A DNA stretch of 64,000 nt from positions 576,001 to 640,000 of the forward strand of contig CAVSQW010000015.1 of assembly GCA_963730185.1 (NCBI GenBank). The letters run 5' to 3'. The translations under genes were made by a program, and so were the position numbers. This DNA comes from an uncultured Gemmatimonadales bacterium (GTDB taxonomy: Bacteria > Gemmatimonadota > Gemmatimonadetes > Gemmatimonadales > GWC2-71-9). The notes under the pieces were generated by a model that saw nothing but the letters and a program-made list of their open reading frames with translations, did no database searches and was not told the DNA's origin. Position 1 is the first letter of the stretch, and each line of letters opens with the position of its first letter. This document shows positions 18,004 to 22,571 of the stretch, in pieces.

Positions 18004-18077
18004 CCAGGGATTAGCCCGTCCCCCTACCGCCAACTCACCACTCCCTCCCTGCTCCCCACGCACAACTCACGACTCCC
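18000..18077. repeat. Heptamer-repeat element (partial copy)
   Basis: CTCACCA/CTCCCTG/CTCCCCA/CGCACAA/CTCACGA units, the same family as those at about 22400 and 53870. Confidence 0.55.
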
Positions 18078-18114: not shown

Positions 18115-18131
18115 TGTGAAATCTTTCACAT
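18114..18131. promoter_or_regulatory. Rex operator (autoregulation)
   Basis: TTGTGAA-ATCT-TTCACAT, one mismatch to the Rex consensus TTGTGAA-N4-TTCACAA, ending 3 nt before the rex ATG. Confidence 0.88.
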
Positions 18132-18755: not shown

Positions 18756-18798
18756 TTGGGGACGACCCAGCCACCTAGTCCCAGCCTTCGTCCCGACA

Positions 18799-18804
18799 TA
18801 TAGT
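18799..18804 (+). promoter_or_regulatory. Putative -10 element for the leaderless RAPP small ORF / metal uptake operon
   Basis: TATAGT 7 nt before the ATG at 18812, no SD. Confidence 0.55.
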
Positions 18805-18811
18805 TGGATCC

Positions 18812-19144
18812 ATGAGTTCACGTCGTCGGCGGCAGCGACGGACCGGATGGCTCGCCCTGGTCATGTATCTGGGCGCGGCGATCGTGCTGCCGTTGCTCCA
18901 TGCCGAAGACGAGGTCCTCTGGAGCCAGCCGAGCTACGAGGCGCACCATACGGATGGTTGTCGCGTCATCCATTCGGAAGCCGGTTGCCCCACCCACCAT
19001 CACTATGCCAATCCCGAGCTGGCCGCGCGCCGGCTCGTGTCGCTTGCCGGACCGGTGGTCCAGGTTCCGGCGCCCGCCACCGACCACCCGGTCGGGGCGC
19101 TCCTCGTCCTTCTCCTTCGTACCCGCGCGCCTCCCATCGCCTGA
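18812..19144 (+). CDS. Putative metal-sensing leader / ribosome arrest peptide (signal peptide, His/Cys cluster, C-terminal RAPP; CruR/CutF/DUF2946-like architecture)
   Basis: Arg-rich N-terminus plus hydrophobic segment, HHTDGC..H....CPTHHH, ends LRTRAPPIA*. Confidence 0.65.
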   Translation: MSSRRRRQRRTGWLALVMYLGAAIVLPLLHAEDEVLWSQPSYEAHHTDGCRVIHSEAGCPTHHHYANPELAARRLVSLAGPVVQVPAPATDHPVGALLVLLLRTRAPPIA

Positions 19145-19247
19145 CGGTCTGAGTCGCGAGCGGTGAGGGTGGACGCCGGCCGTGGCCGGCGGCCGCTCGC
19201 TCTCCGTTCGCTCATCTCGTCATCATCAGCCCTGAGGAGGAGCAGAG

Positions 19248-20513
19248 ATGCGCGGTCTCACCGCGATCTGCTTCGCGCTGGCCGTGGGAGCCGCCGGGAT
19301 GCCGGCGGTAGCCCGGGCCCAGACACCGGAGCAACGCGCCGATTCGTTGGCGCGAGACCTCGCGCGTCTCAAGGCGCGCATCGATTCCCTGGAACGCACC
19401 GTGGCCGGGCTGCGGGGCCCGTCGCGGGATACGGCCCCAGCCGCCGACGAGCTCACGGCGCTCCGGGCGGCCGCGGCCGCGGCCGCCCCCACCGACACCA
19501 CCAAGCGCGAAGAGCGGACCTTCGTGAGCCGGACCCGGAGTCAGCCGCAGCTCAATCCCGAGATCAGCGCCACCGGCGACGTGCGTTTCGTCGCCCGGCA
19601 GCCGGGGCCGCAGCAGGACAACGTCGACGTCCGGGAGTTCGAGTTCGCGTTGCAGTCGCCCCTCGATCCCTTCTCGAGCACCAAGATCTTCCTGTCGTGG
19701 GAGGGCGGGCACGTCGACGTGGAGGAGGGCTACGCCTACTGGACCGGGCTACCGGGGCACCTTCGTCTCGACGTCGGCCGCTTCCGCCAACAGGTCGGCG
19801 AGCTCAACCGGTGGCACCTCCACGCGCTGCCCGAGTCCGAGTACCCGCTGGTGATCACCGAGTACCTGGGGGAGGACGGCCTGGTGGGCGATGGCCTGAG
19901 CCTCTACTGGCTGGCGCCCTCCACCGGGAAGGCGCTCGGCACCCACGAGCTCTACGGCCAGGTGACGCTGGCCAACAGTGACGCTCTCTTCGACGGGGGC
20001 CACCGGCTGGCCGTCAACGGGCACTTCCTGAATTTCTGGCAGCTCTCGCCCAGCACCTTTCTTCAGGTCGGCGCCTCGGGGCTCTACGGTCGGAACCCCG
20101 ATGCCGATCTCTCGACCACGCTCTACGGGGCCGAGTTCCGGCTCTCGTGGCGGCCGCCCAGTCGGGCGCTCTACCGGTCGTTCACCCTCCGGGGCGAAGG
20201 CTTCCGGGTCAGGCAGAAGGTCGCCGGGGTCGGCGACCCGCACCACGGCGGCTACCTCGGCGCCGACTGGCAGGTGAGCCGGCGCCTTCATCTGGGCACC
20301 CGCTTCGACTGGGTCGAGCCCCGGATCGGCGGCGACGCGATCTGGGCGGTGGTGCCGCATCTCACCTGGTGGCAAAGCGAGTGGGTGTATCTCCAGGCCG
20401 AGTGGGAACACCGCGCCACGCCCAGCCCCGACCTCGACGCCCGCCTCACGACCAACCGCCTCCTGCTCCGCGCGGTCTGGTCGATCGGTCCCCATAAACA
20501 CGAGAACTACTGA
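19248..20513 (+). CDS. Outer-membrane beta-barrel (porin-like) protein associated with metal uptake
   Basis: Signal peptide, N-terminal coiled coil, amphipathic beta strands, His motifs LNRWHLH and terminal GPHKHENY; strong SD GAGGAGG. Confidence 0.7.
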   Translation: MRGLTAICFALAVGAAGMPAVARAQTPEQRADSLARDLARLKARIDSLERTVAGLRGPSRDTAPAADELTALRAAAAAAAPTDTTKREERTFVSRTRSQPQLNPEISATGDVRFVARQPGPQQDNVDVREFEFALQSPLDPFSSTKIFLSWEGGHVDVEEGYAYWTGLPGHLRLDVGRFRQQVGELNRWHLHALPESEYPLVITEYLGEDGLVGDGLSLYWLAPSTGKALGTHELYGQVTLANSDALFDGGHRLAVNGHFLNFWQLSPSTFLQVGASGLYGRNPDADLSTTLYGAEFRLSWRPPSRALYRSFTLRGEGFRVRQKVAGVGDPHHGGYLGADWQVSRRLHLGTRFDWVEPRIGGDAIWAVVPHLTWWQSEWVYLQAEWEHRATPSPDLDARLTTNRLLLRAVWSIGPHKHENY

Positions 20514-21568
20514 TGACCACGATCCTGATCCTGCTCCTGGCCTCCGTGCCGTCGCCCGTCGCGGCCGCGCCGCCGGTCCCACCGCCCGCCGCCGAGCTCC
20601 GGGTGGTCACCTCGCTCTCGACCTACGCCGCCATCGCCAGGGAGCTGGTGGGCGACAAGGGCACCGTGGTCTCGATCGGCCAGGGCGACGAGAACCCCCA
20701 CTACGTCCAGCCCCGGCCCAGCTTTGCGCTCGAGCTCCGGCGGGCCGACCTCTTCGTCTCGACCGGGCTCGACCTCGAGCTGTGGGTCCCGGCCCTGCTC
20801 GACAAGGCCAACAACCCGAAGGTGAGCGACGGCGGCCCCGGGCAGGTGACCGCGTACACCGGGGTGCGTCTGCTGGACATCCCGACCTCGACCAGCCGGG
20901 CGGAGGGCGACATCCACGCCTTCGGGAATCCGCACATCTGGGCCGATCCGATCAACGCGATCGTGATCGGCCAGAACATCACCACCGGGCTTGCCCGAGT
21001 GGCCCCGGGCGACGCCCGGTACTTCAAGGACCGGTTCACGGCCTGGCGGAGCCGGGTGCTCCAGGCCCTGGTCGGCGAGCCGATCGTCAAGCTCCTCGGC
21101 GAGGACGCCGTCTTCAGCCTGCTGGACCAGGGCAAGTTCTGGAACTTCGTTCAGAACCAGCAGTACCAGGGGGCGCCGCTGATCGAGCAGCTCGGCGGTT
21201 GGCTCAAGAAGGGCGAGGTCTTCCGAGGGAAGGAAATGGTCTGCTATCACAAGGAGTGGGACTACTTCTCCCGGCGGTTCGACATTCCCTGCATCGATTT
21301 CATCGAGCCCAAGCCGGGGATCCCGCCGTCGCCGGGGCACGTCGCCAAGCTGATCGCGGAGATCCGCGACCGCCATATCCCGGTGATCTTCGCGGCCAAC
21401 TTCTACGATCCCCGGCAGGCCAAGGTGATCGCCCAGCGGACCGGCTCCACGGCCGTGATCGTCCCGGCCAACGCGGCCGGGGCGCCGGGGACGGACACCT
21501 ACATCGGACTCGTCAACTTGTGGGTCGACCAACTCGCCGCCGGCTTCGCCCGGCAGGGCGGGGACTGA
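20513..21568 (+). CDS. Zn/Mn-type (cluster A-I, ZnuA/TroA-like) substrate-binding protein
   Basis: ENPHYVQPRPS, GLDLELW, GDIHAFGNPHIW, YHKEWDYF, EPKPGIPPSPGH. Confidence 0.9.
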   Translation: MTTILILLLASVPSPVAAAPPVPPPAAELRVVTSLSTYAAIARELVGDKGTVVSIGQGDENPHYVQPRPSFALELRRADLFVSTGLDLELWVPALLDKANNPKVSDGGPGQVTAYTGVRLLDIPTSTSRAEGDIHAFGNPHIWADPINAIVIGQNITTGLARVAPGDARYFKDRFTAWRSRVLQALVGEPIVKLLGEDAVFSLLDQGKFWNFVQNQQYQGAPLIEQLGGWLKKGEVFRGKEMVCYHKEWDYFSRRFDIPCIDFIEPKPGIPPSPGHVAKLIAEIRDRHIPVIFAANFYDPRQAKVIAQRTGSTAVIVPANAAGAPGTDTYIGLVNLWVDQLAAGFARQGGD

Positions 21569-21588
21569 GCCAACCGAGGAGCAGATCC

Positions 21589-22410
21589 ATGCTCGAATTG
21601 ATCCTGCCGCCGTTCGTCGCCTGTCTCGTCCTGGTGTCGATCCTGGCCTACCTCGGCGTCCACGTGATCGCGCGCGAAGTGATCTTCGTCGACCTCTCGC
21701 TCGCCCAGATGGCGGCGCTCGGCAGCACCACGGCGCTGCTGTTCGGGATCGAGGGCGGGAGCCCGGGCGCCTACGGCTTCGCCCTGGCCTTCACGGTGGT
21801 GGGCGCCGCGATCTTCGCCGCCACCCGGTCCAACAAGAAGTCCCAGCGGGTGCCCCACGAGGCGATCATCGGCATCGTCTACGTGGTGGCGTCGGCGGCC
21901 ACGCTGCTGGTGGCCGACAAAGCCCCGCAGGGGGCCGAGGCAGTGAAGGAGCTCCTGGTGGGCGCGATCCTCTGGGTCACCTGGCCCCAGATCCTCCGAC
22001 TGGTCGTGGTGTTCTCGATCGTGGGGCTGGTCCACTGGCTCCTCCGCGATCGGTTCCTCGCCATCTCGTTCCACGAGGAGGAGGCCGAGGCGCGCGGTTG
22101 GCGGGTCCGGTGGTGGGACTTCGTCTTCTACCTCACCTTCGGCGTGGCCATCACCCTGGCCGTGCCGGTGGCGGGCGTGCTGCTGGTGTTCTCGTTCCTG
22201 GTCGTGCCGGCGGTGGTGGCGTTCCTGTTCACCACCAACATCCGGAAGCTGGCCCTGGCCAGCTGGGCCGCCGGCGCCCTGGCCTCGGCCGTCGGCCTCG
22301 GTCTCTCGTTCAAGTACGACCTCCCGACCGGGCCGCTGATCGTGTGCGGCTTCGGGGCGCTGCTGGTGCTGGCCGGGGCGGTGAGACGGGTTGTGACTCG
22401 TGAGTTGTGA
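21589..22410 (+). CDS. Metal ABC transporter permease (ZnuB/MntB-like)
   Basis: VIFVDLSLAQMAALG, EAIIGIVY, GVLLVFSFLVVPA, DLPTGPLIV; multiple TM helices. Confidence 0.88.
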   Translation: MLELILPPFVACLVLVSILAYLGVHVIAREVIFVDLSLAQMAALGSTTALLFGIEGGSPGAYGFALAFTVVGAAIFAATRSNKKSQRVPHEAIIGIVYVVASAATLLVADKAPQGAEAVKELLVGAILWVTWPQILRLVVVFSIVGLVHWLLRDRFLAISFHEEEAEARGWRVRWWDFVFYLTFGVAITLAVPVAGVLLVFSFLVVPAVVAFLFTTNIRKLALASWAAGALASAVGLGLSFKYDLPTGPLIVCGFGALLVLAGAVRRVVTREL

Positions 22411-22557
22411 GTGGCGACTAGGGAGGGAGTGGTGAGGAGGGAGTAGGGGTGCGCCGGACGCCACTCACTACTCCCGCCTGGTCGGGGTGCCGGCCGCGCC
22501 CTACTCACGACTCACGACTCCCTCCCTACTCCCTATTCCCAACTCCCTAGTCCCTAC
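22392..22557. repeat. Heptamer-built palindromic repeat element
   Basis: Left arm GTGACTC/GTGAGTT/GTGAGTG/GCGACTA/GGGAGTA; right arm CTCACGA/CTCACGA/CTCCCTA/TTCCCAA/GTCCCTA. Confidence 0.75.
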
Positions 22558-22571
22558 CATTAACTTCCGTC

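Follow-up and report, generated by a model that had tools for sequence, protein, structure and literature searches.

Metal-gated ribosome arrest has been shown for copper only, by the leader peptides CruR and CutF, which establish the kind in opposite directions (PMC9426467, PMC9973294, 10.1101/2025.02.05.636593). CruR (Bp2923) of Bordetella pertussis belongs to the family DUF2946 (PF11162); it has C90/C93 and R139, whose spacing matters (PMC9426467). CutF of Rhodobacter capsulatus senses copper and induces a detoxifying oxidase (PMC9973294; bioRxiv 10.1101/2025.02.05.636593). TolC-type and TonB genes can stand downstream of CutF-like genes, and some clusters have His-only motifs beside Ni/Co genes (PMC9973294). 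Fujiwara et al. reported that upstream open reading frames (uORFs) with RAPP or RGPP occur ahead of metal genes, and their source data include nine RAPP uORFs before genes bearing the name of the porin family discussed below, a homology by name only (PMC12992588). No zinc riboswitch is known (PMC9426467), and a zinc-responsive arrest peptide would fill a gap. Here we analyse a 64,000-nt stretch of DNA (the window) from an uncultured Gemmatimonadales bacterium (GCA_963730185.1, contig CAVSQW010000015.1, positions 576,001 to 640,000, forward strand). It contains a 110-residue open reading frame (ORF) at 18812..19144 on the plus strand that ends with an Arg-Ala-Pro-Pro (RAPP) motif and precedes genes for a porin, a ZnuA-type binding protein and a ZnuB-type permease. 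This leader is very probably a regulatory arrest peptide, judged from its sequence and that of its relatives. New here is a branch of CruR/CutF-kind leaders with zinc-type cargo; such leaders in general are already published.

An earlier examination of the letters alone (the sequence-only reading) had pointed out this ORF, and its layout is borne out in all details: the frame itself, the position of TATAGT, the residues H45, H46, C50, H54, C59 and H62-64, the RAPP codons and the gaps of 56 and 103 nt on the two sides. The start lies 56 nt 3' of the stop of rex (18755), and the next ATG (19248) follows 103 nt after the leader's end. Residues 1-31 (18812..18904) comprise a basic N-terminus and a hydrophobic helix and end in L-H-A, where the family has A-H-A; helix 2-33 is the only element in the AlphaFold model. 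The putative metal site spans residues 43-62 (18938..18997) with the pattern E43-x2-H46-x3-C50-x3-H54-x4-C59-x2-H62. Its Cys motif is C59-P-T-H62, that is CxxH and not CxxC, and C59 is 46 residues away from R105. The RAPP codons R105-A106-P107-P108 (19124..19135) are followed by I-A-stop.

A comparison with CruR shows that the leader is likewise the first gene of a metal-import-type operon, with a putative export signal, a long intergenic region and a Cys motif 46-49 residues before the C-terminal RAPP (PMC9426467). In contrast to CruR, it has no DUF2946 match, a CxxH motif and additional Glu/His/Cys ligands; its cargo is a porin with ZnuA and ZnuB types instead of a Cu TonB receptor and a PepSY protein; and its predicted output is pairing with a Shine-Dalgarno (SD) sequence on a probably leaderless mRNA instead of Rho termination. 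The description of CutF-like proteins, with fewer than 150 residues, PP within the last 15 residues and a His/Cys motif, fits the leader as well (PMC9973294). In CutF, stalling opens a stem that masks the following SD sequence; a comparable opening is predicted across the present family, with a gain of only 1.8 kcal/mol in the window, but here the anti-SD overlaps the leader's last codons. Neither ZnuA/ZnuB neighbours nor Gemmatimonadota are among the cases of the CutF-like set described in the available parts of these papers (PMC9973294; bioRxiv 10.1101/2025.02.05.636593). ApdA, ApdP and SecM are exported leaders that also end with the stalling motif RAP|P, but they precede protein-localization genes, whereas a metal motif and cargo for metal transport set the present leader apart (PMC10951233). 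In the available main text of Fujiwara et al. the words 'zinc' and 'Gemmatimonad' do not occur and no zinc-type case is tested (PMC12992588). Our literature search, conducted mostly outside subscription papers, found neither zinc sensing by a RAPP peptide nor the Gemmatimonadota leaders treated in any paper; the published CutF-like gene list may include this branch.

Conservation of the leader was examined at 80 loci with relatives of the porin, of which 72 were scored after leaving out eight with less than 300 nt of upstream DNA. A frame ending in R[AGS]PP, with its stop at most 320 nt from the porin match, is present in 69 of these 72 (exceptions L056, L075 and L077), while such frames occur by chance in 131 of 3000 random windows of the source genome (4.4%). 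We regard it as virtually certain that the leader is real and conserved. All genomes with porin relatives are titled Gemmatimonadota or a taxon inside it, except one 'Bacterium HR33'. An alignment of the window leader with 68 relatives (n=69; L013, truncated by a contig end, was left out) has an invariant RAPP by construction. The ligands are strongly kept, with E43 in 67, H46 in 62, C50 in 66, H54 in 68 and C59 in all 69 sequences, although the mean column identity is just 36%. In the 67 leaders that have HxxxxC the distance from Cys to Arg is always 45-49. RAPP is encoded among the relatives with all four Ala codons, all four Pro codons and five Arg codons; the codons vary and the amino acids are kept, so selection acts on the peptide. 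Thus the prediction that ligands and RAPP would be conserved over a diverging spacer was confirmed. The conserved ligands, together with the helix and the A-H-A-like site, also support the proposed combination of an export-signal-like N-terminus with a His/Cys cluster. A-H-A itself is found in 41/69 leaders and probably marks where a signal peptide ends at a signal peptidase site; the conserved H30-A31 would probably belong to this end rather than act as a metal ligand. The description as 'His-rich, non-CxxC' does not hold for the family. In 53/69 leaders position 62 is Cys, H45 and H63 show no consensus and the column of H64 is mostly Tyr, so this description fits the window copy only. The family motif reads signal-ExxHxxxCxxxHxxxxCxxC, with the window copy as a CxxH variant.

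No profile of Pfam or NCBIfam matches the window leader at E<=1, including DUF2946 (PF11162), and a DUF2946 search of the source genome at E<=0.001 found nothing. The relatives give a different answer to the same comparison, which the sequence-only reading had suggested. Weak DUF2946 matches are found in 17 of 57 aligned family members (best E 0.0049), the second leader of the source genome reaches 19.2 bits, below the Pfam cut-off of 23.7 bits, and one ORF (G106:C1) matches both DUF2946 above this cut-off (28.3 bits) and our own profile A1 (9.6e-10). DUF2946 exceeds its cut-off in 5 of 201 Gemmatimonadota genomes, the ORF G106:C1 being one of these cases. From the weak matches and the double match it follows that the branch of the window leader grades into DUF2946. 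By profile the window protein is outside this family, yet on the sequence evidence it is placed in a divergent CruR/CutF-like branch. Regarding an undescribed family in this lineage, the proposal stands insofar as no paper on the Gemmatimonadota branch was found; it does not stand as to the kind, since the branch grades into the known CruR/CutF type. Profile A1, built from 57 leaders, has matches in 115 of the same 201 genomes, which were sampled across the phylum (source genome and G157, which is marked unpublished, counted), and it matches 1568 representatives at E<=0.001. The leaders carry no annotation; more than half of these genomes contain them, and the phylum is abundant in soil. Among Atlas clusters of similar small proteins the commonest phylum is Nitrospirota (0.97), which is a lead only.

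The last codons of the leader are complementary to the ribosome-binding region of the next gene, and the pairing sequences differ between loci. In the window, the predicted anti-SD lies within the Pro-Pro codons (19130..19136). Its partner at 19233-19240 covers the SD-like GAGGAGG of the porin gene (19234..19240), and the Pro codons pair with it at a probability of 0.55-0.77 in free mRNA. In between, a GC-rich hairpin without U-tract (19156..19211) is predicted to place the leader end beside the ribosome-binding site. This arrangement was evaluated for the window and 68 relatives (n=69; L063, for which no start was found, was left out); start codons of the relatives were assigned from SD scores, with possible errors in some. 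The duplex of a leader tail with its own ribosome-binding region averages -17.3 kcal/mol, versus -13.5 kcal/mol for non-cognate pairs (0/10000 permutations), and after collapse of kin to 15 clusters 69/10000 permutations reach the observed value. The same excess is seen in sets of TolC (13), receptor (36) and further porin (14) loci, uncorrected for kinship. The first Pro codon of RAPP is CCT in 32/70 cases versus 85/1337 Pro codons of porin genes. With a ribosome placed at RAP|P, the family's cost of opening the site falls from 13.6 to 8.5 kcal/mol; a drop of at least 2 kcal/mol occurs in 56/69 loci, versus 9/69 with the ribosome 15 codons earlier. Since the leader tail can pair with the porin SD, stalling should switch porin translation on; the evidence for this is good family-wide and modest in the window. 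The 171-nt fold of the window has a z of -1.51, which is not significant alone.

The three genes downstream agree with the barrel, ZnuA-like protein and ZnuB-like permease named by the sequence-only reading. The first (19248..20513, plus strand) encodes a protein of 421 residues without a Pfam match above cut-off, whose predicted structure (pLDDT 83.8) is a plug-less porin with 16 strands; the highest TM-score, 0.58, is to OprP. Its automatic name, TonB-dependent receptor, was rejected: such a receptor is a 22-stranded barrel with a plug, and the best folds here are porins. The porin alignment, searched against solved structures, gave no real match; its Atlas neighbours stand at 0.97-0.98. The second gene (20513..21568, plus strand) encodes a ZnuA/AztC-type binding protein (PF01297, E 1.3e-44), for which AztC is the best NCBIfam match, below cut-off. 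H64, H141 and H246 are found at the ligand positions, and the three His motifs are present in 76, 69 and 74 of 78 relatives. We take this three-His set to be the zinc-type pattern. The best solved relatives are mixed Fe/Mn/Zn binders, including YfeA (E 6.6e-20), relative to which the binding protein carries a long insertion. The third gene (21589..22410, plus strand) encodes an ABC-3 permease of ZnuB/AztB type (PF00950, E 1.2e-34). An ABC ATPase gene, on which the sequence-only reading had not remarked, is absent from the operon; four of the loci examined have an unrelated ABC ATPase upstream. A complete importer of the order leader-porin-ZnuA-ATPase-ZnuB is found at L162, a same-genus paralogue with a porin 32% identical, and the best match of its ATPase is AztA.

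The cargo of the wider family was surveyed at the best loci from the A1 search together with 60 hand-picked weaker or second matches, which is not a random sample. Directly after 91 leaders stand 37 TonB receptors, 36 porins of the same family, 15 TolC-type genes and 3 unclassified genes, so that an outer-membrane protein gene follows 88 of them. ZnuD is the best NCBIfam match for two of three receptors tested and the second for the third, all below cut-off. The TolC-type genes checked run on into CzcB-like and CusA/CzcA-like genes, and one pump matches ZneA (E 1.7e-132) more strongly than CusA (E 6e-93). All classified operons are of metal-transport type, and none has sec, yidC or dsb next. 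A scan of 31 proteins from neighbouring and cargo genes turned up neither a copper chaperone nor an oxidase or PepSY protein. A broader profile shows exactly two leaders in the source genome. The second, ending near 89751 on the minus strand of contig C15, has HDPATCPVC and RAPP and precedes a czcCBA-like unit; it had escaped a rule-based paralogue scan, which recovered the window leader only, through its hydrophobicity threshold. In that unit (G000:C15:83000-90400, minus strand; L084, L218) the adaptor and pump genes are frame-split, by sequencing error or real breakage. The TonB receptor encoded on contig C8 of the same genome lacks a RAPP leader.

A quick tree of 74 leaders, built from few columns, places most exporter leaders, including the second one of the source genome on a long branch, apart from the porin-type leaders; four that adjoin nfo, as many porin-type leaders do, are placed among the latter. 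Thus cargo has been exchanged under orthologous leaders at least twice. Several further arrangements were seen. Leader and cargo units stand in tandem at L142 (two leader-receptor units) and in G074, where the order is leader-czcCBA-leader-gene and the second RAPP leader (L220:7044-9954), above the DUF2946 cut-off, overlaps the end of a czcA-like gene and precedes an unclassified frame of 834 residues. The exporter-side leaders L160, L161 and L168, before TolC-type genes, have a His/Asp-rich motif region without Cys. The leader frame overlaps the nfo end in many porin loci. Frequent neighbours in L001-L080, with kinship uncontrolled, are endonuclease IV (40 loci), M23 peptidase (11), alkaline phosphatase (6) and QueD (5), all of which we assume to be zinc-dependent enzymes.

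The hexamer TATAGT (18799..18804, plus strand), 7 nt 5' of the leader ATG (18812), had been proposed as a promoter for a leaderless mRNA. In the source genome the pattern TAnnnT peaks 5-9 nt before first ATGs: it is found at 6 nt in 79/3670 (2.15%), versus 0.15% for internal ATGs. Within 5-9 nt it occurs at 178 of these 3670 crudely called first ATGs (about 5%), which suggests that leaderless genes are common there. Hexamer and spacing in the window agree with this peak, so a leaderless start is plausible for the leader; a strict sigma-70 scan did not support it, as it found no promoter. The same scan reported one terminator-like site, inside rex, and none in the leader-porin gap. The TAnnnT spacing is found in 22/30 'solo', 14/16 further porin and 8/39 nfo-linked loci, several of the 'solo' loci being actually nfo-linked. 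A GGAAC motif, partly a TTGGAA -35 variant, lies 25-36 nt upstream of the leader in 14/46 porin loci not scored as nfo-linked; it is absent from the window and from the 178 leaderless-like promoters. In the 56-nt gap no Zur/Fur-like palindrome had been seen, and indeed none of the 25 longest of 71 inverted-repeat pairs lies there. The source genome has two Fur-family genes with best matches to Fur and PerR, below cut-off. G004 and G007 (99% complete) have two leaders each and no Fur-family match above cut-off, a pattern that fits a leader acting without Zur.

These observations can be combined as follows. The leader would be translated from a leaderless mRNA and, to judge from its sequence, be targeted to Sec by its N-terminus. 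At RAP|P the ribosome would arrest, cover the last codons and free the porin SD, which according to the computed pairing would turn on the porin and the genes coupled to it. Counted from the peptidyl-transferase centre, the Glu/His/Cys site would then lie some 48-64 residues away, close to where the nascent chain leaves tunnel plus translocon. A divalent metal, most likely Zn(II), might fold this site and release the stall, so that the SD re-closes and uptake is turned off; this is the weakest step. On balance it is probable that the ORF encodes a CruR/CutF-type nascent peptide with a regulatory role, including all steps from export to operon-on and a metal as signal. Of the parts of this proposal, ribosome stalling is highly likely, control of the operon in cis is likely, and a metal is probably the signal. 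For the window operon, metal acting as an off signal is slightly favoured. Zinc as the main metal has about an even chance; the cargo points to it through the three-His ZnuA-type protein, the ZnuD-like receptors, the ZneA-like pumps and the AztA-matching ATPase of the paralogue.

Several results weigh against this proposal. RAPP alone is insufficient for arrest (PMC12992588), and the AlphaFold model of the leader has no folded metal site. The pairing signal is gone when kin are collapsed to five clusters (4780/10000), a test of low power. In the window, the opening cost falls just from 16.3 to 14.5 kcal/mol on stalling, because a second hairpin with porin codons still holds 19239-19246. None of 57 related operons with more than 900 nt of sequence beyond the permease gene contains an ATPase, nor is a clear ZnuC-type gene evident elsewhere in the source genome (82% complete) or in three of four others checked; the best ZnuC-like matches in the source genome, G046, G039 and G142 stand in operons that by eye appear to be for cobalamin or iron chelates, and in G127 a complete metal ABC operon stands separately. 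With the source genome 82% complete, a Zur gene may also be missing from the assembly. A further objection comes from the four leaders at L214-L217 (G178, G001, G056, G048), which have the full motif, follow nfo directly and head czcCBA-like exporters. In the tree they nest within porin-type leaders at two places (support 95-98), and the predicted RNA sign is the same in three of the four. With orthologous leaders on both kinds of cargo, a simple rule of 'metal = off' cannot fit both.

A rival explanation is the same switch with opposite sign, as in CutF (PMC9973294): excess metal would prolong the stall and induce the operon, and the ATPase-less module would buffer or shed periplasmic metal. 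The missing ATPases and the swapping of the module with czcCBA under orthologous leaders are in favour of it, as is the motif Hx4Cxx[CH], which is present in 12/12 exporter and 21/39 porin leaders versus 8/23 receptor leaders. We give it a real but low chance, as the complete importer at L162 includes its ATPase, TonB receptors follow 37 of the 91 leaders, and the automatic name of the porin family implies, by name only, expression under zinc limitation. About as unlikely is an ordinary CruR-like copper switch, with copper (or Ni, Co, Mn) as the ligand. The family consensus is indeed CxxC, the Cu motif of CruR, there is overlap with DUF2946, and Fe/Mn binders such as YfeA are among the proteins of solved structure closest to the binding protein; but copper genes are lacking among the proteins scanned, the pump is nearer to ZneA than to CusA, and the family has extra conserved Glu/His ligands, with a window copy even without CxxC.

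The output could differ from the occlusion of a ribosome-binding site that we propose and consist, as in CruR, of Rho-dependent termination. Over their final 60 nt the leaders are rich in C and poor in G (skew +0.35, versus +0.04 in the porin gene), although Pro codons account for part of this. A rho gene is present (C17:92427-93665), with a second rho-like gene at C8:247334-248581, a gapped match below cut-off, and the computed SD switch is weak in the window. We hold this route to be improbable as a replacement, since leader tail and SD region co-vary across loci and the median intergenic distance is 80 nt, versus 162 nt for cruR; the two routes can coexist. It is even less probable that the signal is not a metal and that the peptide, like SecM or ApdP, reports on Sec export or on disulfide formation in the periplasm. 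An outer-membrane protein gene almost always follows, and two near-invariant Cys could form a disulfide, but Glu and His are conserved besides Cys and the operons are of metal-transport type, with no sec, yidC or dsb gene next to a leader. Finally, the ORF might encode a small secreted metal-binding protein with an incidental RAPP, in line with its probable cleavable signal and metal motif. This is very unlikely, because the leader is always first in its operon, the Cys-to-RAPP distance is fixed, the spacer is divergent and without predicted fold, and the tail pairs with the SD at the RNA level.

If arrest is released by zinc as proposed, the leader would be the first zinc-responsive arrest peptide in the literature searched. 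Why metal binding frees the ribosome in CruR yet lengthens the arrest in CutF is an unsolved question, and closely related leaders on importer-type and exporter cargo, e.g. L041 and L106, offer natural pairs for finding the determinants of sign. The ZnuA/ZnuB module without an ATPase poses a puzzle of its own. It is conceivable, though doubtful, that zinc homeostasis in Gemmatimonadota runs largely via a co-translational zinc-sensor family instead of Zur, with the sign flipped or re-tuned by a few residues or the RNA context. One leader type would then gate porin/ZnuA/ZnuB modules, ZnuD-like receptors and ZneA-like pumps, and the source genome would hold an import-side and an export-side leader.

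Control of the operon by Rex was considered as a family trait and rejected, as rex adjoins 0/92 loci searched. Just before rex, after a promoter-like pair TTGACG-N18-TAGCTT, the palindrome TGTGAA-N4-TTCACA (18115-18130) is found, which resembles the Rex operator and suggests that rex is autoregulated. Short low-complexity intergenic repeats flank the operon at 18015-18077, 18770-18790 and 22420-22560, and four of their motifs, 9-11 bases long, have 26-62 copies each in the source genome.

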